The translations under genes and the position numbers were made by a program. From the NCBI GenBank assembly GCA_964611355.1, contig CAZSYD010000011.1:1-64000 (forward strand): 64,000 nt of DNA, written 5' to 3'. The first letter of the stretch is position 1, and each line of letters opens with the position of its first letter. This document shows positions 1 through 63,850 of the stretch, one piece after another. Under the pieces are notes generated by a model. That model was given only the letters and a program-made list of their open reading frames with translations, was not told the origin of the DNA and ran no database searches. Source of the DNA: an uncultured Ignavibacteriales bacterium. Lineage in GTDB: Bacteria; Zixibacteria; MSB-5A5; GN15; JAAZOE01.

Positions 1-1982
1 TTCTTCAACTTCTCCGTGAGTTTTTTGATTTCGTCGCGGAGTTGGGCGGCGGTTTCGAATTCGAGGTTGTCGGCGGCTTTTTTCATCGCCTTACGCATGA
101 AGGCAATCTGATCTTCGTAAGTCATATCGTTGAAAAAGCTCGGTTTTTCAAACTCCGGCTCCGTCACGGTACGACTGTCGGCAAAAGCCGTCGCCTGCAT
201 GATTTCTTCGCGCGTTTTGCGGATCGTCTCCGGCGTTATTCCGTGCTCCTTGTTATATTCAAGCTGTTTTAATCGCCGCCGGTTGGTTTCGGCCAGCGCC
301 TTTTCAATGGAGCCGGTAATCCTGTCGGCATAAAAGATAACCTTGCCGGCGGCGTTCCGGGCCGCCCGGCCGGCGGTTTGAATCAGCGACTGTGCGCTGC
401 GCAAAAAACCTTCCTTGTCGGCGTCAAGAATGGCGACAAGTGAAACTTCGGGCAGATCGAGACCTTCACGCAAAAGATTTATGCCAACCAGAACGTCGAA
501 TCTGGCCAGCCGCAGGTCGCGAATCAGTTCGGTGCGGTCGATGGTATCGATTTCGCTGTGCATGTAATGCGCCCTGATATCCAGCTTGACCAGATAATCG
601 GTCAGATCCTCGGCCATCCGCTTGGTCAGCGTCGTCACCAATACCCTTTCACGTGCGGCAGCCCGATCGCGAATCTCGGCAACCAGATCATCAACCTGCG
701 TTTTGACCGGCCGGACTACGACTTCAGGATCGACCAGGCCGGTCGGCCGGATTACCTGCTCGACTATCACACCGTCGGAACGATCCATTTCGTAATCAGC
801 CGGTGTGGCCGAAACAAAGATGATATTTTTCAGAAGCGTTTCGAATTCGTCAAAGAAAAGCGGCCTGTTATCCAGCGCCGAAGGAAGACGGAAACCATGC
901 TCAACAAGCGTTTCTTTGCGGGAACGGTCACCGGCGAACATCCCCCTCACCTGCGGGATCGACTGGTGCGACTCGTCGATGATAGCGAGAAAATCGTCCG
1001 GGAAAAAGTCGATCAAAGTGTAAGGCCTCTCCCCCGGTTTGCGGCCGGTCAGGTGCCGGGAATAATTTTCAATGCCTGAGCAGTACCCGATTTCGCGCAT
1101 CATCTCTAAGTCGTAACGGGTGCGCGATTCGAGCCGCTGCGCTTCCAGCAATTTCCCGGCTGAACGAAACTGCTCCAGCCTTTCAGCCAGTTCTTTTTCA
1201 ATGGCTTTGACGGCTCTTTCCAACTGCGGGTGTGTCGTAACGAAATGTTTGGCCGGATATATGGCGACCCTTTTTCGTTCTTCGATAATTTCCCCGCTGA
1301 CCGGATTGAAGGCGGTAAGTTTTTCGATCTCGTCGCCGAACATCTCGATTCGGAGGGCATCTTCCCTGTAGGCCGGAATAAGCTCAATTGTATCGCCGCG
1401 CACCCGGAAATTGCCGCGCGAAAAATTGATATCGTTGCGGTTATAATGAATATCTATGAGTTGACGAATCATCCTGTCGCGATCGATCTCCTGACCGACC
1501 TCAAGGAAAAGCAAAAGCTCCTTGTAATCTTTGGGAGAGCCGAGACCATAGATGCAGGAAACCGAGGCGATAATAACGACGTCGCTTCGTTCCAGAAGCG
1601 CCGAGGTGGCTCTCAGGCGGAGACGGTCGATATCGTCGTTCATCGAGGTATCTTTTTCGATGAAAGTGTCGGTGGTCGGGATATACGCTTCGGGCTGATA
1701 GTAATCATAGTAACTGATGAAAAATTCGACGGCGTTGTGCGGAAAGAAAGAGCGCATTTCGCCGTATAGTTGAGCCGCCAGGGTCTTGTTGTGCGATAGA
1801 ATAAGAGTCGGGCGATTACAGGCGGCAATGACATTGGCCATAGTAAAAGTCTTGCCCGAACCGGTTACGCCCAGAAGCGTTTGAAACTTCCGGTTCCGGT
1901 TGAGCCCTTCCACGAGTTGAGCTATAGCCTCCGGTTGATCCCCTTTGGGGTTAAAATTGGATTCCAGCCTGAACTTATCCAT
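1..1982 (-). CDS. uvrB: Excinuclease ABC subunit B (3' end runs off the window)
   Basis: Manual minus-strand translation from ATG at 1982 gives [50 protein letters not shown], a UvrB N-terminus with Walker A. Missing from the ORF track because no stop lies inside the window. Confidence 0.97.
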
Positions 1983-2204: not shown

Positions 2205-2522
2205 ATGTACGCTGTGGTAGAAACAGGCGGAACTCAGGTTACGGTTGAAGAAGGCACTCAACTGAAAGTACCGCATATAGACAGTAAAGTCGGCGACAAG
2301 ATTACCCTCGACAAGGTGCTTCTCATTTCCGGCGGGACAGAACCGATAGTCGGTCATCCTTATCTCGAAAACGCCAGCGTGGAAGCGGAGCTTGTATCAC
2401 AGGGCAAAGACGACAAGATTACCGTTTTTAAATTCAAACGGCGTACCAAATACCGCCGCACAACAGGGCACCGTCAGAAGTTTACGGAATTGAAAATCAC
2501 CAGGATCAATTCACCCGGCTGA
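2205..2522 (+). CDS. rplU: 50S ribosomal protein L21
   Basis: MYAVVETGG...KITVFKFKRRTKYRRTTGHRQKFT signature; GGAGG RBS. Confidence 0.97.
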   Translation: MYAVVETGGTQVTVEEGTQLKVPHIDSKVGDKITLDKVLLISGGTEPIVGHPYLENASVEAELVSQGKDDKITVFKFKRRTKYRRTTGHRQKFTELKITRINSPG

Positions 2523-2532
2523 CGTTGGACGT

Positions 2533-4896
2533 TTGATGGAACGCGCCATTAGCACGGACAGGCTGAAAAAAAACCGACTGCCGTCCCTTTTGATATTGGT
2601 AGGGGTCTTTTTACTTATTTTCGGACAGGCTGCCGCCCAGCAGTATAAAATCATCGATATTCGCGTCTCCGGTAACGTGCATGTGTCCGAGAAAACGATC
2701 AGGAACGCAGCCGCATTGAAAATCGGAACTGATCTCACCGGCGCAGCCCTGCAGGATGCCGTCAAGAGCCTGTACGCAAAAGGGGTTTTCCGCGATATAG
2801 TAGTTGACGTCGAGCAGGTTACCGCCGGTGTGGTAATAATTATCAAGGTGTCGGAATACCCCAAGCTGTCCGGAATCAATTTCAAGGGGAACAAAAAGAT
2901 CAAGGATAAGGAACTTAAGAAGCTTCTGGAGCTGGCCGTCGGCGGGTATATCAACGATCACCTGGTCGTCCAGTCCGGAAGCAAAATCGAATCGGAATAT
3001 ATATCAAAAGGTTACTTCATGGCGGAAATCGATGCGGAGTTGAAATATGCTCCCGATTCGGCCAACGCGGAGCTAACCTTCAATATCAGGGAGTATAACA
3101 AGGTCAAAGTCGAGCGAGTCGTTCTCACGGGCAACAAACAACTGAAAGCCGATGATCTTATCAAAAAGATATCCAACCGCAAGCGTGGACTTTTTCGCTC
3201 ATCCGATTTTAAGAAGGAAAAATTTCCCGAGGACAAGGAAAAGATCATCGAATACTGCCGTAAGAAAGGTTTTATTGACGCCTATATAGTATCCGATTCG
3301 TCCGTCGTTGATACGGTCAGGAACAGGATGACTATCTATATCAATATATATGAGGGACCGAAATATTATTTCGGCGAAAGCAGCTTCGCGGGCAATGAGA
3401 TATATACGGACGAAGACTTGGGTAAGACCCTTAAATTCAAGTCGGGGCAGGTATTCAATCAGGAAAAATATGAAGAATCGCTGGGGGAACTGTACGGCGC
3501 CTACCAGGAAGAAGGATACCTGCATATACGTATCCTCGACCAGATACAAACGGCTGATTCGACCGTTAATATCGATTATGACATCACGGAGGGTCTGCCC
3601 TCGGAAGTCAGGCTGATCGAGATTACCGGAAATACAAAGACCAAGGAAAAAGTGATCCGTCGGGAAATGTTGATGCGCCCCGGCATGACCTTCCGACGCT
3701 CGATTTTGATGCGCTCCCTTCGCGATATCACCCAACTGAATTACTTTTCCGACGTGGTTCCCGATGTCCGCGATCTGCCTTCAGGCGATGTGGACCTGAT
3801 AATAAAAGTCGAGGAGAAACCGACGGCCCAGGTTTCCGCCGGAGCCGGTTATTCCGGTCAGGACAAACTGGTCGGAACATTCGGGTTGGGGATTCCCAAT
3901 TTTCGGGGAAACGGACAGAACGTAAATATCAGCGTTGACTTTGGTTCGCGCCGCAGTTCGATTTCGTTGAGCTTCACCGAACCCTGGTTTATGGGTACGC
4001 CGACTCTGGTGGGATTTGAAATCTACAATCTCGACCGCCGCTGGTACGATGATTTTACCGAAGGCCGGCGCGGCGGCTCGCTCCGTCTGGGAAGGCGGTT
4101 GAGATGGCCGGATAATTACTTTCGTGTTTACTGGCGGTACCGTCTGGAAAGCGTCAAGTACCATGATTTTGATGAAGCCTACCTGACGCAAAACGGTGAA
4201 ACGGTTATCAACTCCTATGGTGAGACGGTATACAGACCGTTTGAGAATTCGCTTATGGCATTCAACGAGGAATGGCTGCGTACGTCGGCCATGTCATTTA
4301 CCGTGGAACGCGACAGCCGTGACCTGCCGATTTTCGCCACTTCCGGAGCGCAAATCGCTTATACCGGCGAAGTATCGGGAGGTATCCTCGGCGGAAGGTG
4401 GGAATATTACAAGCACCTTTTCGTGGCCAGCAAATACATCCCCCTGATATGGGGTGCGGCCCTGGTGGGTTCCAGCAAGTTCGGGTACATCAGCACCAAA
4501 GACAACGACCTGATACCATACTCGGAAAGGTTTTCTCCCGGCGGCGTCGATCCCGACGGTACCGTGCGCGGCTATCCGGATGCTTCGCTGTCGCCGAGAA
4601 GCTCGACCGGCTCCATTCTGGGCGGCATGTCGGAGGTTATTTATGATGCCCAGATTCAACTGCCGATCGTCAAAGGACAAATGTACGGACTGATTTTCGC
4701 CGACGCCGGAACGGCCTGGCTGAGTCGAAAAGAAATCAGGCCGTTTTCGCATCTCTACAAAAGCGTTGGCGTCGGTTTCCGCCTGATCGTCCCCAGCGTG
4801 GGCGTGATCGGGTTTGATTTCGGATACGCTCTCGATGAACTTCGCGGAGAAAAAAAAGGCTGGCGGCCGCATTTCCAGATATCGCCAGGATATTAA
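2533..4896 (+). CDS. bamA: Outer membrane protein assembly factor BamA
   Basis: Signal peptide, repeated POTRA motifs (I.I.GN; GNTKTKEKVIRRE), VRGY motif, C-terminal barrel; adjacent to skp and lpxD. Confidence 0.95.
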   Translation: MMERAISTDRLKKNRLPSLLILVGVFLLIFGQAAAQQYKIIDIRVSGNVHVSEKTIRNAAALKIGTDLTGAALQDAVKSLYAKGVFRDIVVDVEQVTAGVVIIIKVSEYPKLSGINFKGNKKIKDKELKKLLELAVGGYINDHLVVQSGSKIESEYISKGYFMAEIDAELKYAPDSANAELTFNIREYNKVKVERVVLTGNKQLKADDLIKKISNRKRGLFRSSDFKKEKFPEDKEKIIEYCRKKGFIDAYIVSDSSVVDTVRNRMTIYINIYEGPKYYFGESSFAGNEIYTDEDLGKTLKFKSGQVFNQEKYEESLGELYGAYQEEGYLHIRILDQIQTADSTVNIDYDITEGLPSEVRLIEITGNTKTKEKVIRREMLMRPGMTFRRSILMRSLRDITQLNYFSDVVPDVRDLPSGDVDLIIKVEEKPTAQVSAGAGYSGQDKLVGTFGLGIPNFRGNGQNVNISVDFGSRRSSISLSFTEPWFMGTPTLVGFEIYNLDRRWYDDFTEGRRGGSLRLGRRLRWPDNYFRVYWRYRLESVKYHDFDEAYLTQNGETVINSYGETVYRPFENSLMAFNEEWLRTSAMSFTVERDSRDLPIFATSGAQIAYTGEVSGGILGGRWEYYKHLFVASKYIPLIWGAALVGSSKFGYISTKDNDLIPYSERFSPGGVDPDGTVRGYPDASLSPRSSTGSILGGMSEVIYDAQIQLPIVKGQMYGLIFADAGTAWLSRKEIRPFSHLYKSVGVGFRLIVPSVGVIGFDFGYALDELRGEKKGWRPHFQISPGY

Positions 4897-4935
4897 CATA
4901 CGAATCGGAAAAAAGAAACGATAAAGGAGAATGTA

Positions 4936-5454
4936 ATGGTTAGACTGTTCAAATTTCCGGCGTTGCTTGTTTCAATAATATTGCTATTAGGTGGTAATGC
5001 GTTGGCCCAGAAGTCCGGCTTTATCGATTCGGAGAAAATCCAGCAGAATTACAAGGAATGGGCCAAAGCACAGGAGCAGTTTAATACCGAGATGAAGGCA
5101 TGGGAAGACGAAGCGGCTCGGATGCAACAGGAATTGCAGGAAGCGGGTGATGAATACCAAAGGCAAAAGCTGATCCTCTCGGCGGAGAAAAAGGCTGAAA
5201 AAGAAGCCGCAATCAACGCCAAGGATCAGGCTCTGGCTTCCTTCACGCGTGAAATCTCCGGCCCCGGCGGACGGGCGGAACAGCGCATGGCGGAGTTGGT
5301 TAAACCGCTCTATGAAAAAATCCAGGCCGCCATCGAAAAGCTGGCTATAGAAAAAAACTACGATTTTATCTTCAACTCGGCCGGCCTGGCTTACGCAAAA
5401 AAAGATCTTGATGTAACCGATGAGGTACTCGAGATTCTGGAAAGCGAAAATTAA
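4936..5454 (+). CDS. skp: OmpH/Skp periplasmic chaperone
   Basis: Signal peptide, GFIDSEKI, long coiled coil, YDFIF...DVTDEVL; lies between bamA and lpxD. Confidence 0.92.
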   Translation: MVRLFKFPALLVSIILLLGGNALAQKSGFIDSEKIQQNYKEWAKAQEQFNTEMKAWEDEAARMQQELQEAGDEYQRQKLILSAEKKAEKEAAINAKDQALASFTREISGPGGRAEQRMAELVKPLYEKIQAAIEKLAIEKNYDFIFNSAGLAYAKKDLDVTDEVLEILESEN

Positions 5455-50790: not shown

Positions 50791-53700
50791 TCAAAATTGT
50801 AATCCCAAACCGAGAATAATCTGACGACCACGGCCCCAGCGACCCGGGTTGGCCTGGCGTTCGGTACCGCCGCCGACGATGCCCGACTGATTGTTGTCGG
50901 TGTCCGGAAGACCCGTGGTGGAGTAAACTGACAGAACATTCTTATTATCAAAGAGATTCTTGACCCAGGCCTTGAAAGTCCAATCCATTCCCGAAATGCG
51001 GAATCGCTTATGTAACTTAACATCAGTAAAGGCGGTTGACGGGAGCCGCATCGAGTTTTTCATCGGCTTCTCGCCGACATCAAGCGTTATACCGGGAAAA
51101 CTCTTGTCGGGAGTGAAAGGGAAACCGGTCTGAAAACGCCAGTAAATCGACATATCCCAATCATTCGGTATGGAAATACCAAACACCCTGGGATGATCCC
51201 GATCGGTAAAATAAAATTGCAACCAGAGCGAGACGCGATGGCGGATATCCCAATCAAGCGGGTTTTCATCGATGGAAATCTCATCCTGCGCCAGCAAACG
51301 CTCATAGTTTTCCGAATCGGAGGAGGATTTACCGTATGCAAACAAATACTCATAACTAAGGGTACCGTTGACAAACCGCGACGCCTTTCGCTCCAGTTCC
51401 ATCTCGACGCCACGGACACGAGCGTAGTCGGTGTTATCATAGTACGAAAAAGCGCTTGCCCCCTGACCATATACCGAAGTCGCGATAATATCAAAGTAAT
51501 CCTTGTAAAAACCGGATAGCTTCATTGAATATTCATCAGTGAAAGCGAAGTTGACGCCGAAAGTATAGTTAACCGTCTTGGTGTAATCAAGGTTGGGATT
51601 GCCGACCAGATTAACTGACCCGCTGCCGAACGGGTTGGCATTTCGGTACATCTTGGCATAACTGGGCAACTCATAGAAATGGCCGTAGTTGAATCGGATC
51701 ATGGCCCTTTCCGAGATCGGGTAGTTGATTGACACCCGCGGTGAAAGCTTGTCTCGGATATCCGTTAATTTGCTACCGGTGATATCCTGGACGGTGGAAA
51801 CACCTTTCAGGTCGGACTGAAGGAAAATGTCGGCGCGCAACCCCAGCGAGGCCACCAGCGAACCATACTCAATCTTGTCGCGCAAGTACACGACCAGAAC
51901 CTTGGGCTCACGCTTGTAGAAATCCCGAATCGTCCCGCGTCCAAAGTACGGATTAGCATTGTAAGGGAGACTGTCGGGTTCGTTGCTGTACTGCTGCAAA
52001 CGCTGAATGGCCATCACGCTGATATCCTCCCGCCGGAATTCAAGACCGGCTTTTATCTCTTGCGCGCGACCAATGGCTTTCTTAAAGTTGCCCTTTAATG
52101 TATATTTATCGACCTTCTCCTCCGTCCAAACATTGGTATATCCACCCTGCTCGAAACCGTACAGGAGAAAAGCGGTGCCGTTATCCCCTCCCTGGTCATG
52201 ACGGCCGTTCTTGTTTATGTCGACAAACGGTTCGCCGGGATCATATCTGTTATTCGGCGCATCATAAACGCCGTTGCCGTTGTAATCGATGTAGGGAATG
52301 CCGGGTTCCCAATAATTCCGGCCGGGCGAAGTGTATTTGTTGTCCCGATTGAAGTCCTGATTGGGAGGAGTATTCAGCGCCGTCACAAAACGATCAACAC
52401 CGGGATCATATATACCATTACCATTGATGTCCGTAAACGGCTCGCCCAGCGAGGAGTCGCCGTCAATATACGGCTCCTCACGGGAGGTGACAAACGGAGT
52501 AGTGACATCCTGATATTCACTATCGAAGGTATTGTTGCCGTTAACGTCTCTGGTCAGGCGATCCCCTATGTCCCAGATGCCGTTACCGTTAAGATCGGCA
52601 AAAGGCTCACCTTCGAATTGGTCCATTATCCCGTTATTGTTCAGGTCGAAAAACGGATACCAGTAACCTCCTATCTGGGCGTCTTCCGAAATCCAGACGT
52701 CGCCTCCGTTACGAAAAGGAACATATATACTCCCCCAACTGACCGAATCGGGGAAAATATGCAAATGCGGTTCAGCTTCGTCAAACTGGTTATTGCCATT
52801 GAGATCATCATAGGTTTCGTATTCATCAATAAACAGGAACTGGTCCGGGTTGAGGCCTTCTCCGGGATGTTCCGGATCACCCGGTTTCTGCGTATAGCGG
52901 GAACCCCAATACGAAAAGTTGACTTCATAGTCGGTTGATTTGGAAAGAACCTGCTTAAGCTGCAGCGAAACGGTATTAGTACTGTAATCATAAATCGGCG
53001 CCGTAGCCGGTGTATAGCGATAAACCCACCAAAAGTCGGTTTCATGCCGCCAACTGCCCTTGTACAGAGCTTTGGCTTTTATGTTGCTTGTGGGGGTAAA
53101 AGCCAGCGTGAAATCGAGGTTATAAAGGTTGTTCTGCCGATCCGGAATATGGATGCCCAGAATATCCATTCCCGAATACGTCTTCCGCGTGGCCGGTGTG
53201 TTATACCGCGAATACGGATTGCCGGTATCCTGCTTCACCGCCCGGCTGTACAGGTAGAAAGTGAAATCCTTACCTTCGAAATAATTGATCCCCACGGCCG
53301 GAAGAATACGACTTGTCAGGACCGGATCAGGTCCGCTGATGCTGAATTCAAGTTGATCATAATTTTCCGAATACTTATTAAGGTTTTCAGCTCCAAAATC
53401 GTCCGTATAATACTCTAGCCGAGATCTGGTTTTTGCGGGTGAGCCTTCCGGAGAAGTAATCTTAACAACACCGGAAAGCGCCTCTCCGTACTCGGGATCA
53501 AAACCATCTTTGATAACCTGCAACTCAAGAACCGCCGAGGAAGAGATGTTAATACCGGCATCGACCGGGGCGCGTCCCCCGAGAGGATCCGAATAGTTCA
53601 CGCCGTCAACCAGGTATGTCGTTTCGCCGCGACGGCCGCCGCGGATATGTAATTCACCCTCAGCATCCGTGGTTATACCGGTCTCGCGCGCAAGGAGATC

Positions 53701-54165
53701 ACCCACGCTGGCCACCGGGGCGATCTGGATTTCTTTTTGCGTCTTAATCGATACCGTACCGGTCACATTAACGTCGATTCCCTTGCGGGTACCTGTAACG
53801 ACAGTCACCTTGCCGGTTTCAATCACGGTCTGCTTCATTTGGATATTAATCTCCGAAGTCTGGTCAGTATTGACCTCGACGTCTTCCACCAGAACCGATT
53901 CATATGACAGCAATGTCACCTTGAGATTGCAAGTACCGGGTTGAACTGACAGGATGATGTAGTTTCCATCGATGTCAGTCTTGGCCCCGATATTGGTCCC
54001 CTCAATCTGAACCGATACGCCAAACTTCGGTTCGCCGGTATTCTTGTCAGTGATGGTTCCTTTTATCCGCCCGACCTCGGCGGAAAACACCGAGCCGGCC
54101 GTCAGCAACAGCGTTACCGTCAAAACAAGGGCAAAAAACGCCGTCTTTGGAACTCGGCTAAACAT
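50791..54165 (-). CDS. TonB-dependent receptor with N-terminal carboxypeptidase-regulatory-like domain and Ca-binding-repeat insert
   Basis: GRIKGTITDKNTGEP, plug HIRGGR..ETTYLVDG and GFDPEYG.ALSGVV, GNPNL, KNLFD, C-terminal GRQIILGLGLQF; ATG at 54165 follows GAGGAGG. Confidence 0.92.
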   Translation of the reverse strand: MFSRVPKTAFFALVLTVTLLLTAGSVFSAEVGRIKGTITDKNTGEPKFGVSVQIEGTNIGAKTDIDGNYIILSVQPGTCNLKVTLLSYESVLVEDVEVNTDQTSEINIQMKQTVIETGKVTVVTGTRKGIDVNVTGTVSIKTQKEIQIAPVASVGDLLARETGITTDAEGELHIRGGRRGETTYLVDGVNYSDPLGGRAPVDAGINISSSAVLELQVIKDGFDPEYGEALSGVVKITSPEGSPAKTRSRLEYYTDDFGAENLNKYSENYDQLEFSISGPDPVLTSRILPAVGINYFEGKDFTFYLYSRAVKQDTGNPYSRYNTPATRKTYSGMDILGIHIPDRQNNLYNLDFTLAFTPTSNIKAKALYKGSWRHETDFWWVYRYTPATAPIYDYSTNTVSLQLKQVLSKSTDYEVNFSYWGSRYTQKPGDPEHPGEGLNPDQFLFIDEYETYDDLNGNNQFDEAEPHLHIFPDSVSWGSIYVPFRNGGDVWISEDAQIGGYWYPFFDLNNNGIMDQFEGEPFADLNGNGIWDIGDRLTRDVNGNNTFDSEYQDVTTPFVTSREEPYIDGDSSLGEPFTDINGNGIYDPGVDRFVTALNTPPNQDFNRDNKYTSPGRNYWEPGIPYIDYNGNGVYDAPNNRYDPGEPFVDINKNGRHDQGGDNGTAFLLYGFEQGGYTNVWTEEKVDKYTLKGNFKKAIGRAQEIKAGLEFRREDISVMAIQRLQQYSNEPDSLPYNANPYFGRGTIRDFYKREPKVLVVYLRDKIEYGSLVASLGLRADIFLQSDLKGVSTVQDITGSKLTDIRDKLSPRVSINYPISERAMIRFNYGHFYELPSYAKMYRNANPFGSGSVNLVGNPNLDYTKTVNYTFGVNFAFTDEYSMKLSGFYKDYFDIIATSVYGQGASAFSYYDNTDYARVRGVEMELERKASRFVNGTLSYEYLFAYGKSSSDSENYERLLAQDEISIDENPLDWDIRHRVSLWLQFYFTDRDHPRVFGISIPNDWDMSIYWRFQTGFPFTPDKSFPGITLDVGEKPMKNSMRLPSTAFTDVKLHKRFRISGMDWTFKAWVKNLFDNKNVLSVYSTTGLPDTDNNQSGIVGGGTERQANPGRWGRGRQIILGLGLQF

Positions 54166-54344
54166 AACCTTACCCTCCTCGCTGGGACAGCTATATCTAT
54201 TTACTTTGGTGTGAGGGATATCAACCCGTCGAAAAAAAATTCTATTCAACAAACCCCGGCAACCAAACCTTTCTAAACCTTAAAACAGCCGCTAACCTGT
54301 CCACCCTGTCCCGTACGGTCTATCGAAGGCCGCTTAGACCTAAG

Positions 54345-54446: not shown

Positions 54447-55223
54447 TTAGGCCAAAGACAAATTTTTAAAATGGATTTCCCGCCGCCTGATAACCGTCAA
54501 TTCCGAATTTGAGAACCGTTCCGGCGATAATTGAATCTCCAGGGTCTTTTCAAACGCCCTGACCAATACCTCTGACAGCTCTTCCCGACTCCCGGGCAAA
54601 ATGGGAATCACGGCCTTTTTTGTTTTCCAAGGCTCCTGTAAAATGGCCGGATGGCTGCAAGGAGCGGCTATTTTAATTGCGCCGTGCTGCAAAAGAGCCC
54701 TGCGGCCGCGACGCTGCGACCCGGCGGCCACTTTCTGCCCTCCGACAATAATTTCGTACCGCGATACCGCCGCAAAACACCCCTTCTGAAGCGCCTGTGA
54801 CCCGGACAATCTTACCGGGTTATCTCCTCTCGAAAATGATGCTTTCCACCCAATCATTTCATAAAACATGACTATCGCCTGTGATATTATGCGATAGCTG
54901 TCGCTAAGACTTTTCCCCAGAACGGGATAGCGAATAAAATTGCCGGCCACCGCATAGGTCAGTTCGTCATCGTCATGTAGTAGCGCCCGCCCGCCGGTAA
55001 CCCGCCGTATAACCGGCATACCGCCGAGTTTGCCCGTATCAACCGCCCGATCAAATTCCTGGTGATAACCGATAGTAATCGCCGGCTCGCTCCATCCGTA
55101 AATCCGCAATATCGGAACCGATTCCCCCGACTCCGCGATATCCGGCAGACAGGCATCCGCCGCCATATTGAACGACGGCGACCTCTTTTCATACGGTATC
55201 AACCGACAGGTCTCCACCAACAA
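54447..55223 (-). CDS. Lipoate-protein ligase A / LipM-like octanoyltransferase
   Basis: NMAAD, LRIYGW, RRVTGGRALLHD, KVAAGSQRR, LQHGAI. Confidence 0.88.
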   Translation of the reverse strand: MLVETCRLIPYEKRSPSFNMAADACLPDIAESGESVPILRIYGWSEPAITIGYHQEFDRAVDTGKLGGMPVIRRVTGGRALLHDDDELTYAVAGNFIRYPVLGKSLSDSYRIISQAIVMFYEMIGWKASFSRGDNPVRLSGSQALQKGCFAAVSRYEIIVGGQKVAAGSQRRGRRALLQHGAIKIAAPCSHPAILQEPWKTKKAVIPILPGSREELSEVLVRAFEKTLEIQLSPERFSNSELTVIRRREIHFKNLSLA

Positions 55224-55263: not shown

Positions 55264-55292
55264 AAAAATAAAACGCCGCCGTCAGGGCGGCG
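55264..55292 (-). terminator. Rho-independent terminator after the sigma-54 activator
   Basis: CGCCGCC-gtcag-GGCGGCG stem followed on the minus strand by TTTTATTTTT. Confidence 0.75.
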
Positions 55293-55324: not shown

Positions 55325-58261
55325 TTAGTTTATACTATTAAGCCGTTTGGGATTAATGCCATACTGCTTCAGCTTCAGACGCAACGTGGATTCCGGGATA
55401 TTCAGGGAGTCGGCGGCCCTCTTTTTTACACCTCCCTGTTCCTTCAAGGCCTTGATAATAAACCGTTTCTCGTATTCCGCCAGGTAATTGTAAAGCGAAA
55501 ATCCGTCCCTGGTATAGAAAGCCATCTCATCCGGACCATCTTCGATATTGGCTTTCCCTTCCCCAAGAATCCTCGATGACAAAAGCGAGGGGTTTATAGT
55601 TCCCTCGTTATTAGCCAGAAGAACCAGCTTCTTGATTTCATTTTCCAATTCCCGGACGTTCCCCGGCCAATCCCAATCAATCAAATATTTCAAAGTATCG
55701 GGCGAAATTCGGCATTTGCTGCCCGACAGGAAATGATCTACAAGAAGCGGTATATCCTCTTTGCGATCTTTCAGTGATGGAATCGTGAAATTAAGAGCGC
55801 ACAAGCGGTAATAAAGATCGCTGCGAAATCGTTTCTCTTCCATTTCCACTTTGAGGATTTTATTGGTTGCGGAAATGACTCGAACATCAACCTTGCGTGG
55901 CCTGGTATCGCCCAGCCGGGTTATTTCCTGATTCTCCAAGACCCGTAACAACTTAGCCTGAATGGACTGCGGCATATCGGCGATTTCATCCAGGAAGAAT
56001 GTTCCCCCGTCGGCTTCTTCGAACAGACCCGGTTTATCCCGGTCGGCTCCGGTGAATGCACCCCTCTTATATCCGAAAAGTTCCGATTCCAGAAGCGATT
56101 CTGGAAGAGCCGCGCAATTGACCGATATGAAACGCTTGCCGCGACGGTTTGAATTATAATGAATCGCCTTGGCCAGAAGGTCCTTGCCGGTGCCTGTTTC
56201 CCCGCTGATCGAGATCGGCATGTTGGAATCAGCCACCTGCCTGACCCTCGACAACATTTCCATGAATGGTCGCGATTGAGTAATAATATTCGGAAAAACG
56301 CATCGTTCCATAAGTTGGGCTTTAAGACGATAATTATCTTCGAGCAGTTTCTCTTTCTGATATTCGGAAGTTTTGAACGCTACCAGATCAGCAAAACCGA
56401 CCGCAAAATCAATTTCTCTTTGCGAGAAAGGATTAAATCCGCTGCCATTATCGTTTGCCATTCGGTCAAGATAAATGTAACCGACAACATTGCGTCCAAG
56501 AATAAGAGGCAAAATCAGCAGGCTGGCGGCCTGGCTCGAGCCGGTCGACAGCAGGTCGACGAAATCGGCGTCATTAGTACAGTCAAGCGCCAGGGTAGGA
56601 ACATCCGATGCCACCCGGTCTTTTAAAAGTCCATCGAACCTTTTCATTACGTCGTCGAAGTCCTTTTCATCCAATGCGTGGGCAGCCGATATTTCCGACC
56701 TTTGACCCTGCACCGTATTGACGATAAAACCCCTGTCTGCCGCTGTTCTTTTGATCAGGACTTCAAACAAAACCTCAAGCGGTCCGTTCTTCAAATTTTT
56801 GTAGTCGGAACCGGATATGATTTTTCCAAATATCTTGAATTCATTATCCCGGGACAGGGCTTTATTAATGGCGCTTTCCGACAAAGCCCGCAGAAACTCG
56901 TTGGCTTTATTGACCCCCGCCGGGTCACCGACGGATCGGAAACCGTTGACTGCCTTTTTAAGATATTCCAGAGCTTCACCGTTCCTGCCGGCGCGATGCC
57001 ATAGACGGCCCATTTCAAATTGACATCCGGCCACGTAAAAAGCACTGCCTAACCGCTCAAACAGTTTCTCGCCTTCCCGCAGCAAAGAGACGGCTTCCCG
57101 ATTATCGTAACTCGAGTCGGCCAGCGCAATCTGACCGTAAGCGATAATCGAACGTCCCAGTTCGTAATTGTCTCCTGTCTGACGAAGGATTTCAATACCC
57201 TGCAGGCTGTACCGGCGGGCATCCGCGATCTCATCACGGGCCAGAAATCCCCGCGCTATTACCCGATGGGCAAGCCCAATCTCAGCCTTCTCGCCGATCT
57301 TTTGCGCCAGATCGAGCGATACCTGGGCCAGACGCATAGCATTGTCGTTATGGTTAAGTTCGAGTTCGACCTCGGCCAGCCGCCGCATAGATTGACTAAG
57401 GAGAGCCGATTCCGGGGCCATACTTTTTCCGATTTCAATGGCCTGTTCGAGGAACTTTCTAGCGGTGACATAATCCTGTTTTTCGAAAGCCAGTTCGCCC
57501 TGATATTCCAGGCAGATAGCCAGTTCCCGCTTAAGATGGTTTTTATCTATAACCTCTCTTGCCGAGTTAAGCTCGGATTCAGCCATATGGAATTGCCGGC
57601 GACGAAGATACAGGTAACCAAGCGACAGATGATCGGCAGCCAGTAAATGCGGCAGATTTTGTGCACGGCTTATATTAAATGAAAGACGAAGATTTTCCTC
57701 GGCTTTATCCATTTCTCCGGTCAGCAGGTAGATTCGCCCGAGATTCCCCAATAACTGCACCTTTTTGACCGGGTCGCAGGCGGCATACGGAATAGCATCG
57801 CTGACGTATTCGGCCGCCCTCACATATTCGGATTGTATATAACAGATTCGGCCCAGCGCGTTATAGGCGTCAACAATACCGAAATCATCCTTAGCTCTGC
57901 GGAAAGACGCCAGCGCATCGCCGGCTGCGACCTGAGCCGGTTTTAGTTCCCCACAAGCAACATGCGCCTTATAGAGCAAAAGCTGCAGGTGGCCGATCCG
58001 GCTATTAAGGTTTGTCGAGGCCAGAATGTCGAATGCCTGACGGCATAAGGTAATGGCCAATTTATACTCATTTTGAAAAACAGCCTTCCTGGCATGAAGA
58101 AGGGAATATAGCCCCTTATTAACCCCTCCAGGGTTATATCCTTCCTTTTCCAACCCCTTCAGGGCCGATACGGCTCGCTCCGGATCCCTCTGGTGAAAGT
58201 ATTCCTCTATTTTAAGCAGCCGGGCATCCAGCCCTTTCGATTTTCGTGAGGTTCGGTTCAT
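55325..58261 (-). CDS. Sigma-54-dependent enhancer-binding protein with TPR array, GAF-like domain, AAA+ and Fis-type HTH
   Basis: About 450 aa of TPR helices ([31 protein letters not shown]), GAF-like [60 protein letters not shown]. Confidence 0.95.
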
Positions 58262-58330
58262 AACCCTTCCGTCTTGAAGTTAGTTACTCTCCGGTAAAAT
58301 ATCCGTATAGCTGTTTCGGTCTTGACCGAA

Positions 58331-58648
58331 TTACTCCCTCGAAAAAACGGATTCCACGGGATCGGACACCGGATTTACCTGGTTCGCATTATAGTCGATG
58401 GCGTCATAAAGCAGATTCCACCAGAATAGTGATGACCCGAAGGTCGTAGTTCCAGAACCCAACCCATCCTCGCCACCGTCATAGTCACCGTTGTTATTAT
58501 TACCAATCGGCGAACCGATAGTATCGAAATCATCCCAGACAGGATCTTCGGCCCACGGATGTTCGGCCGCGGTTATGGGAGTAAGGAAAAAACCAACCCC
58601 GATAATGATGGCAAGGATTAGAAACCCGAGTAGTTTCGATACCCTCAT
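58331..58648 (-). CDS. Small secreted acidic peptide/protein precursor (105 aa)
   Basis: GAGGAGG RBS; Sec signal MRVSKLLGFLILAIIIGVGFFLTPITAA followed by EHPWAEDPVWDDFD and a Gly/Asp/Asn-rich tail. Confidence 0.8.
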   Translation of the reverse strand: MRVSKLLGFLILAIIIGVGFFLTPITAAEHPWAEDPVWDDFDTIGSPIGNNNNGDYDGGEDGLGSGTTTFGSSLFWWNLLYDAIDYNANQVNPVSDPVESVFSRE

Positions 58649-58747
58649 GGTATCAACCTCCTCTTAGGTTCAAAGCAAAATGCTTCCAAATAAGGATACC
58701 GATATACAAATCGATCTGCCTTCTTATCGCAGCTTTTGCTTTACTAT

Positions 58748-58776
58748 AACTTACACAATGACAATAAAATTGTCAA
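58748..58776 (-). promoter_or_regulatory. Putative sigma-70 promoter of the peptide gene with overlapping palindrome
   Basis: Minus strand TTGACA-N17-TAAGTT; inverted repeat TGACAAT-aaa-ATTGTCA at 58759-58775. Confidence 0.6.
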
Positions 58777-58939
58777 GCTTTTTTTGATATTTCGCATTAT
58801 CTGCGACAGAAAAACCGCATTCATAAGGGAAAAATCGTGATTCGCATTCCAAAACGCCGTATATGATACCTTTGCACCGATATTCACTTGATTTTCGACA
58901 AAAAAGCGTTTATGTTGCCATATCCGGAGTGTGATCCCA

Positions 58940-63220: not shown

Positions 63221-63850
63221 CGCGATACGAAGGGAGATTTGAAAAAAATCAAAGAAGTCGGCGGCCAGGTCGTTTTTATTCCCAGGATGTCGGATATGTA
63301 TCCGGATGATTATGAAACGTGGGTTGCGGTTGAGAAACTGACTCAAACGCTGGAAGGCGAATTGCGCCCGACTCATTTTCGGGGCGTAACGACCATTGTC
63401 GCCAAGCTGTTTAACATCATCCGGCCGGACGTGGCTTTGTTCGGGATGAAAGATTACCAGCAGGCGATAGTATTAAAGAAAATGACTGCCGATCTGAACT
63501 GGCCGATAAAAATTATCGTCTGCCCTACTGTGCGGGAGAAAGACGGTCTGGCGTTATCATCACGCAACAATTATCTTTCTCCCGAACAGCGCCGGGAAGC
63601 ATTGGCTTTATATAAATCTTTGACTGCCGCAAAACGGATGATCCGCAACGGGGAAACAAGCATATCGGCTATTCGCAAAAAGATGCGACAGGTAATTAAA
63701 AAGACCGCACCGTCGGGAAAGATTGATTATATCGCTTTCACCGAGATGGAGAGTCTAAAGGCGGTCAAGACGGTAACGAAAAACATTGTTGCGTCATTAG
63801 CCCTCCGCCTCGGCCCGGTGAGGTTGATTGATAATATGAAGGTTGGTTAA
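63221..63850 (+). CDS. panC: Pantoate--beta-alanine ligase (5' end lost in gap)
   Basis: RPTHFRGVTTIVAKLFNI, FGMKDYQQ, REKDGLALSSRN, RLIDN. Confidence 0.95.
   Translation, partial: RDTKGDLKKIKEVGGQVVFIPRMSDMYPDDYETWVAVEKLTQTLEGELRPTHFRGVTTIVAKLFNIIRPDVALFGMKDYQQAIVLKKMTADLNWPIKIIVCPTVREKDGLALSSRNNYLSPEQRREALALYKSLTAAKRMIRNGETSISAIRKKMRQVIKKTAPSGKIDYIAFTEMESLKAVKTVTKNIVASLALRLGPVRLIDNMKVG

Follow-up and report, generated by a model that had tools for sequence, protein, structure and literature searches.

The 64,000-nucleotide stretch of DNA analyzed here, called the window below, comes from G000, the label used for the metagenome-assembled genome of an uncultured sediment bacterium of the phylum Zixibacteria. 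On its reverse strand it carries a two-gene cassette in which a small, predicted exported protein with a short His-Pro-Trp (HPW) motif is encoded directly 5′ of a sigma-54 activator with an N-terminal tetratricopeptide repeat (TPR) sensor domain. The cassette itself is real beyond reasonable doubt, and the pairing of its small open reading frame (ORF) with the activator is not due to chance because the pair recurs at 30 of 30 ortholog loci. There is about an even chance that the two genes are a cognate signal-receptor pair, with the HPW segment serving as the peptide ligand of the activator's TPR domain. The features on which this reading turns are the following.

58331-58648 (-), gene for the small exported protein, 105 amino acids, from the ORF listing
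55325-58261 (-), gene for the sigma-54 activator, 978 amino acids, from the ORF listing
58568-58648 (-), predicted Sec signal peptide, residues 1-27 of the small protein (MRVSK, hydrophobic run, TPITA)
58541-58567 (-), codons for AEHPWAEDP, residues 28-36, the sole conserved segment of the small protein
56822-58261 (-), TPR sensor domain, residues 1-480 of the activator and its candidate peptide-binding part, with the TPR superhelix at residues 1-~470

The small, predicted exported protein and its motif

An earlier reading made from the letters alone, the sequence-only reading, had drawn attention to the 105 amino acid ORF, with its ribosome-binding site, signal-like N-terminus and AEHPWAED segment, 69 nt upstream of a 978 amino acid activator, and the ORF listing and the AGGAGG bear this out; the spacer is 69 nt and both genes have the same orientation. 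The protein consists of MRVSK, a hydrophobic run of ~18 residues, TPITAA, EHPWAEDP, a stretch rich in D, G and N, an aromatic patch (LFWWNLLY) and a variable tail. Its signal-peptide cleavage site is predicted, from the n/h/c pattern only. The small proteins belong to no Pfam or NCBIfam family, and a profile search with this one gave 17 database relatives, none of which has a name.

The same reading had expected that homologs of the activator would consistently have a small signal-peptide ORF as neighbor and that an HPW-like motif would be conserved in it, and both expectations are upheld. Throughout the order, a co-oriented ORF of 91-124 amino acids lies immediately 5′ of an activator of ~980 amino acids (30/30 loci, four families). 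Its hydrophobic N-terminal run is 12-24 residues long in 36 orthologs, and the signal-like N-terminus is followed by [GA][DE][HN]PW[DNE][ED], one locus having ADPWDE. When 28 small proteins from the order are aligned, mean column identity is 24% and only M1, P31 and W32 are invariant, so that the motif is the sole conserved part of a protein whose remainder is variable, and the flanks of the motif are acidic. In six further families a small ORF with [EGD]HPW[DENS][DE] is present in 19 of 20 upstream regions, the variant in family f12 being DADPWNE and the sole miss a 794 amino acid paralog of family f10. The Pro-Trp of the motif occurs at 36/36 loci of the order and 19/19 of the other families; its His occurs at 30/36 and 17/19, respectively.

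Three paralogous activator classes

G000 also encodes, on contigs C56 and C49, two TPR-AAA+-helix-turn-helix (HTH) activators that have no GAF domain, each with a small signal-peptide ORF directly 5′, and relatives of these make up a second and a third class. The sensory domain in both is TPR only. In class 2, with activators of ~750 amino acids, the small ORF is present at 20/20 loci, separated from the activator by 1-5 nt at 17 and overlapping the activator start at three, and the small ORFs carry [DE][DE][HQD]PWGG; an automated filter picked 19 of the 20, and PWG is in 19/19 of those picked. Class 3 activators have ~715 amino acids. Of 20 pieces fetched five lacked a recognizable activator ORF, and all 15 remaining loci have a small signal-peptide ORF, 14 of them with an acidic-x-[GP]-W-x-x-P type motif.

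The motifs of the three classes are HPWD/E (class 1), HPWGG (class 2) and D/E-x-G/P-W-x-x-P (class 3), and as far as these sequences tell, the motif is class-specific and moves together with the receptor class. With three paralogous pairs to a genome and a distinct motif in each, there would be three separate channels. The position of the motif in class 3 is also of note, as it falls inside the final seven residues at 6 of 15 loci, and the shortest of these small proteins are hardly more than a signal peptide, a linker and a C-terminal motif. A C-terminal signal is the layout of the Phr, PapR, NprX and AimP propeptides. At one class-3 locus (L078, G004:C535) the small ORF encodes 82 amino acids with GDDGGWIQP present twice, the second copy being C-terminal; this resembles the tandemly duplicated pheromone propeptides of PMC11343458.

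The activator and its TPR superhelix

The architecture earlier proposed for the activator, TPR array, GAF-like domain, AAA+ domain with GAFTGA and Fis-type HTH, is confirmed by Pfam. TPR_MalT (69.9 bits) and TPR_12 match at about residues 115-321, GAF at 500-628 (24.6 bits, with the Pfam cut-off at 22.4), Sigma54_activat (PF00158) at 659-824 with an E-value of 4.8e-68 followed by AAA_lid_14, and HTH_8, the Fis-type HTH, at 927-967; Pfam finds no receiver domain. Direct reading of the sequence gives GAFTGA, Walker A GETGTGK and Walker B FLDE, and the protein thus has the AAA+ domain, GAFTGA and Walker motifs by which a bacterial enhancer-binding protein (EBP) is recognized.

Residues 1-480 are modeled by AlphaFold as a superhelix of 23 helices with a predicted local distance difference test (pLDDT) value of 91.4. 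The 50 matches listed from a Foldseek comparison with the PDB include LGN/Pins, TSK, APC5, APPBP2, OGT and MalT domain III, the last with a TM-score of 0.76 on the target, and the closest solved structures among the 50 take extended peptides in the groove (TSK with the histone H3 tail, LGN/Pins, and APPBP2 with a degron). No RRNPP receptor of the Rap, NprR, PlcR, PrgX or AimR type is among these 50.

Searched with the TPR region, 41 of 41 genomes (G000 and 40 relatives, which together span four families of a single order) yield an ortholog of ~980 amino acids. In a sample of 201 genomes drawn from the phylum, 175 have a homolog of the region at E <= 1e-30, and within that sample there are none in families f9, f13, f14 and f17.

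Promoter, candidate operator dyads and candidate outputs

Upstream of the small ORF are a promoter and two dyad symmetries.

58748-58776 (-), sigma-70-type promoter of the operon: TTGACA at 58771-58776, 17 nt, TAAGTT at 58748-58753
58792-58806 (-), dyad 1, TCGCA-N5-TGCGA, immediately 5′ of the -35 box, candidate operator or EBP-binding site
58727-58741 (-), dyad 2, imperfect, GCA-N5-TGCGA, immediately 3′ of the -10 element

In an alignment of 13 loci of family f1, CTTGACA is invariant and the -10-like TAAGTTA is conserved, and the promoter is also seen in f3 loci; with a -10 hexamer of only 3/6 it was not called in G000 by a consensus promoter scan. Dyad 1 is kept in 13/13 of the f1 loci and is present in loci of f3, f7, f8 and f15. 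Dyad 2 is conserved in the f1 alignment and in most of nine f3 loci (seven f3 genera), with no clear copy in L106. In f11, f12 and f16, 12 cassette promoters were sampled, and 11 of them lack the dyad.

A canonical GG-N10-GC sigma-54 promoter 5′ of the small ORF was not found in 26 of 29 class-1 loci, and a plain sigma-54 autoregulated operon is rejected. The only three loci that have one (L108, L109 and L110) are of genus g19, where TGGCGTG-N4-CTTGCT lies just upstream of dyad 1 and ~590 nt 5′ of the activator start; its sequence suggests positive autoregulation as an addition in this genus.

The full dyad, TCGCA-N5-TGCGA, occurs four times in G000: once at the cassette promoter, twice on contig C23 and once on C34. 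The C23 pair lies upstream of a putative small RNA (sRNA), sRNA-B, and the C34 copy upstream of another, sRNA-A. There are near-copies as well, one on C34 and another on C18. An N6 version at window position 63674 is inside a coding region and is treated as a chance occurrence. The output-site dyads on C23, C34 and C18 lie 96-232 bp upstream of an element, GGCA[CT]-N5-TTG[AT], of fixed spacing; for the candidate targets taken together the distance is 80-230 bp. Of the 30 core dyads, CGCA-N5-TGCG, in the genome, five are 60-260 bp upstream of GGCA[CT]-N5-TTG; with random placement the average is 0.295, and no trial out of 2000 reached five.

sRNA-A (G000 C34:~1803-1899, minus strand) is ~100 nt long with a terminator hairpin at its end. 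It was aligned in 30 loci, one of which is cut short. In all 29 that extend far enough upstream, the promoter precedes the conserved 5′ end by ~12 nt and there is an invariant dyad at ~105 nt upstream; a second dyad, further up, is present in most. Identity between genera is up to 99%, and the fold comprises two hairpins, in which 5 of the 17 pairs show compensatory changes. A covariance model finds sRNA-A in 113 of 151 sampled genomes, and in 0 of 14 genomes from four families that likewise lack the activator. sRNA-B (G000 C23:~2318-2425, minus strand) has two invariant dyads 52 bp apart in 13/13 aligned loci and the GGCA promoter box in 11 of the 13. Outside G000 it was found only in family f1, in 12 of 13 genomes; a single further match of 20 nt in f3 is probably spurious. 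Rfam has no match at either locus. The C18 site precedes an operon encoding an 86 amino acid protein, a 637 amino acid TPR protein, a 356 amino acid protein, ExbB, two ExbD proteins and TonB, and the dyad-plus-promoter arrangement is kept at this operon in 16 of 19 usable loci of relatives. The genome has rpoN. The target promoters would be of the sigma-54 type, and the EBP acting at the dyad is predicted to be this activator and not one of the others. Sigma-54 control of TonB has been predicted for Flavobacteriia, where it is unconfirmed (PMC12316311).

How the sRNAs might act is hinted at by several observations. Both have conserved G-rich loops containing GGA and G000 has a gene for CsrA (C9:16610-16762), and titration of CsrA is therefore a possible mode of action. 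The class-2 cassette (G000:C56 ~4870-4985; L015 ~1870-1985; loci L058-L076) has a TTGACA-N17-TATATT promoter with no dyad, and a leader of 100-130 nt with C-rich tracts complementary to the conserved G-rich loops of sRNA-A. This complementarity hints at cross-talk between channels; RNAduplex comparison of sRNA-A and the class-2 leader with shuffles gave a mixed result, with z <= -2.1 in 7 of 13 genomes with usable leaders and mostly no significance in f1. Also 5′ of the class-2 small ORF, at G000:C56 ~4650-4800, is a tRNA-gene-like sequence with T-arm and D-arm-like stretches in the alignment.

Local signals and neighboring genes

Further signals are close to the two genes.

58657-58662 (-), ribosome-binding site AGGAGG, 8 nt 5′ of the ATG of the small ORF
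58638-58654 (-), inverted repeat GATACC / GGTATC, 6 bp, with the start codon of the small ORF in its loop
55273-55293 (-), Rho-independent terminator at the end of the two-gene operon, with an 8-pair stem, seven of the pairs GC, and a T run

GGAGG before the small ORF is kept in 13/13 loci of f1. The arm of the repeat that is 5′ of the ATG is conserved in this family, as is the other arm, encoded by the MxVS N-terminus, and the repeat may serve in translational control. The terminator that the sequence-only reading had seen as closing the unit is present, at the above position rather than at the 55264-55292 it had given. Rfam has no match across the cassette region.

A lipoate-protein-ligase-like gene (54447-55223, minus strand) is 3′ of the cassette, and two genes downstream of the cassette is a CarboxypepD_reg/TonB-dependent receptor gene (50791-54252, minus strand), both identified by Pfam. 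ORFs sized like these ligase and receptor genes follow the cassette in 9 of 21 loci, the Pfam scan having covered the ORFs of the window. Neither a dyad nor a sigma-54-type promoter is seen 5′ of the receptor gene in the window. Elsewhere in the genome, the single OPT-family oligopeptide transporter is 2.7 kb from sRNA-B, and between them on the opposite strand (G000:C23:2670-6944) are genes for two paralogous, secreted-looking proteins of ~270 amino acids.

Peptide ligand or another role

In the mechanism proposed, Sec would export the small protein, and its acidic HPW segment would be the signal epitope, probably freed as a short peptide. Return of the peptide to the cytoplasm, a speculative step, might be by TonB-energized passage of the outer membrane and then by the single OPT oligopeptide transporter; TonB-dependent oligopeptide uptake occurs in the Fibrobacterota-Chlorobiota-Bacteroidota (FCB) group (RagAB). 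The peptide would then bind in the concave groove of the TPR superhelix and switch the AAA+ domain. The Fis-type HTH is predicted, from the dyad at the activator's own promoter, to bind CGCA-N5-TGCG dyads, and the activator and sigma-54 would transcribe the two sRNAs and the TPR-ExbB-ExbD-ExbD-TonB operon from the sites observed there. It would, in addition, autoregulate the sigma-70-type promoter of its own operon. The fullest version is tentative, with the chances leaning against it: as many as three mutually orthogonal peptide channels, of a kind known from Gram-positive bacteria, in double-membraned Zixibacteria, with re-uptake by OPT and a TonB system that the circuit itself induces, direct TPR binding, the switching on of Qrr-like sRNAs and feedback on the signal operon.

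Two further results bear on recognition of the motif by the TPR domain. The sequence-only reading had proposed a complex prediction, and one run with the TPR domain and the mature small protein, using custom-built alignments, gave weak support for binding, the score being 0.56 (runs of 0.56, 0.64 and 0.45) and the best of three controls 0.18. The runs share at least 28% of contacts and the pLDDT of the partner is at least 33. Of 157 solved complexes 116 reach the mark used, as against 2 of 215 mismatched pairs; at a score of 0.60 or under, those that passed were only 18 of the solved complexes, along with both of the passing mismatches. That motif and TPR pocket co-vary, also an earlier expectation, holds to the extent that the motif differs between receptor paralog classes. 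At the level of a single column, A312, which adjoins the invariant Q313, Gly is found wherever Asn replaces the motif His (five loci), and this is a suggestive lead, not evidence.

A number of points weigh against the peptide-ligand reading. The complex score falls in a range where, unless the pairing was likely to begin with, a pass is wrong more often than it is right, and A312G also occurs in one His-type locus, its association with Asn representing two or three independent events only. The route of the signal is the weakest link. Sec takes a protein of a diderm only as far as the periplasm, and neither an onward route to the outside nor a protease for processing was identified for the small protein; there is also no OppA-type binding protein above the Pfam cut-off in the genome (SBP_bac_5, 26.5 bits vs 32.4). 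The aromatic/hydrophobic patch beyond the low-complexity region is retained in class 1 and class 2, which hints at a role for the whole protein, unlike a mere propeptide. On the output side, the dyad at the activator's own promoter is the sole link between dyad and activator, the genome has ~18 further EBP-like genes, and the recognition helix of the class-2 HTH, as read from sequence, resembles that of class 1. The target promoters carry TTG[AT] and not the canonical TTGC, C(-12) being replaced by A or T. sRNA-A is undetected in f10, f11, f12, f16 and f19 despite the activator and HPW ORF being there. Among the sequencing runs listed as containing the cassette, of which the DNA runs are salt-marsh metagenomes and one of these probably the origin of the genome, there is no RNA run.

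A rival reading is that the small protein is an envelope partner instead of a ligand. The whole HPW protein would then act in the periplasm while the cytoplasmic TPR domain senses something else, the operon being shared for one physiological response, and its possible fellows would be the co-regulated TonB-ExbBD system, the exported-looking TPR protein of that system or the TonB-dependent receptor encoded near the cassette. The TPR-ExbB-ExbD-ExbD-TonB operon within the regulon, the receptor gene two genes downstream (with like-sized ORFs in 9 of 21 loci), the retained patch past the motif and the lack of an Opp-type binding protein above cut-off all favor it. It is nevertheless rather unlikely, as three activator classes each with their own small ORF and class-specific motif are hard to explain without direct specificity, six of the class-3 small proteins are approximately signal peptide, linker and C-terminal motif, the sensory domain of classes 2 and 3 is TPR only, and the complex prediction is, if weakly, above its controls.

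A secretion-coupled partner switch would dispense with the two unexplained steps, outer-membrane crossing and re-import. Here the TPR domain would bind the HPW of the precursor before export and hold the activator on or off, and export would free the activator with no need for re-import, a logic known from the secreted regulators ExsE and FlgM and from TPR chaperones such as IpgC. Translational coupling of the class-2 genes (gaps of 1-5 nt in 17/20, overlap in 3/20) would give fixed stoichiometry, and it was an unprocessed mature chain that, in the complex prediction, weakly outscored the controls. However, Sec export is fast, whether co- or post-translational, and a steady cytoplasmic pool is not to be expected; the known examples rely on dedicated secretion machines and not on Sec. 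The C-terminal motif of the short class-3 proteins fits a released peptide better, and the co-regulated TonB system and OPT transporter are left unexplained; the switch is distinctly unlikely. Very improbable is a metal-binding peptide whose mature N-terminus, X-X-His, would be a copper or nickel site of the amino-terminal Cu- and Ni-binding (ATCUN) type, the system then controlling TonB-dependent metal uptake. The TonB system in the regulon is in keeping with it and the His is ~3 residues past the predicted cleavage site at many loci of the order, but the motif is 5-30 residues past the hydrophobic run in the 19 other-family loci and 12-23 residues in class 2, and several loci have Asn, Asp, Gln or Tyr in place of the His, whereas Pro-Trp never changes. 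As a general feature the ATCUN site is rejected, being largely refuted by the position and variability of the His.

Should the peptide-ligand reading prove true, its signaling logic has either evolved independently or is of much greater age and distribution than has been assumed, and sigma-54 activators would have a new class of input. It would also be the first defined regulatory circuit for the uncultured Zixibacteria, and the three-channel version with re-uptake would take cytoplasmic-receptor peptide quorum sensing beyond Bacillota for the first time and would likewise be its first case with a sigma-54/sRNA output. The parts of the circuit, namely peptide motif, TPR pocket, CGCA-N5-TGCG operator, two sRNAs and TonB operon, can be synthesized and are testable without culturing the organism.

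Comparison with known systems

The sequence-only reading had likened the cassette to the RRNPP systems, and the part of this that stands is the pair synteny and the predictions made for the motif. As in RRNPP(A) (Rap-Phr, NprR-NprX, PlcR-PapR and AimR-AimP), an adjacent, co-oriented gene for a Sec-propeptide accompanies a cytoplasmic TPR receptor that controls transcription, the propeptide is conserved in a short motif only, the motif differs among paralogous receptors and, at 6/15 class-3 loci, it is C-terminal. A small propeptide gene adjacent to its receptor, with secretion predicted from the N-terminal pattern, is found at all loci of the three classes (30/30, 20/20 and 15/15). The differences are that Zixibacteria are a diderm phylum, that output is by a sigma-54 AAA+ domain with a C-terminal Fis-type HTH where RRNPP proteins have an N-terminal XRE-type HTH or a phosphatase/anti-activator domain, and that in classes 1 and 2 of Zixibacteria the mature protein has the motif close to its N-terminus. 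RRNPP receptors are not among the 50 structural matches listed for the TPR domain, and OppA is not found above cut-off. ‘RRNPP-like’ is accordingly a statement about logic only and not about family membership, because the TPR domain resembles the LGN and MalT domain III superhelices and binding and re-import are conjectural.

The earlier suggestion that this is not a described system is in agreement with the literature search, whose listings and abstracts contained no paper on the cassette. In the abstracts, descriptions of cytoplasmic TPR-receptor peptide signaling are confined to Bacillota and their mobile elements. The search gave no paper combining ‘Zixibacteria’ and ‘sigma-54’, and among the matches listed, as judged from listings and abstracts, there is none with both ‘RRNPP’ and ‘sigma-54’ and no TPR-sensor EBP paired with a peptide.

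MalT is likewise a transcription activator in which a TPR superhelix does the sensing, be it of a ligand or of a partner. It is a STAND (signal transduction ATPases with numerous domains) ATPase that responds to maltotriose, carries a LuxR-type HTH and works together with sigma-70, and unlike the present activator it is not known to have a paired exported peptide gene or a sigma-54 AAA+ module. The GAF-type activators NifA, NorR and FhlA share the arrangement of GAF, AAA+ (GAFTGA) and Fis-type HTH found in the C-terminal 480 residues, but are without the 470-residue TPR superhelix and a paired HPW gene, and classes 2 and 3 in Zixibacteria lack the GAF domain. The best partial NCBIfam matches are PrdR (333.5, cut-off 795), NorR (314.9, cut-off 476) and NifA (303.6, cut-off 528.85), all far under their cut-offs, and a NifA, NorR or PrdR equivalog is rejected.

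For the output the closest comparison is with LuxO-Qrr, where LuxO with sigma-54 is required for Qrr1-5 according to 10.1101/2021.07.01.450815. The design in common would be a sigma-54 EBP at the end of a signaling pathway and sRNAs made from sigma-54 promoters with upstream dyads, the Zixibacteria case having two sRNAs with a dyad plus predicted GGCA-N6-TTG promoters. LuxO, however, is a phosphorylated response regulator served by membrane kinases that respond to small molecules, in contrast to the fused TPR (plus GAF) sensor and peptide gene found here; the activator scores 214 bits with the LuxO NCBIfam model, the cut-off of which is 800, and the Zixibacteria sRNAs, having no Rfam match, are not Qrr. 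The new elements are the paralog classes, three in number and each with its own motif, the candidate operator dyad, sRNA-B and the TonB operon. The system combines the pair logic of RRNPP with a predicted sRNA-driving activator of the LuxO type and is a member of neither.

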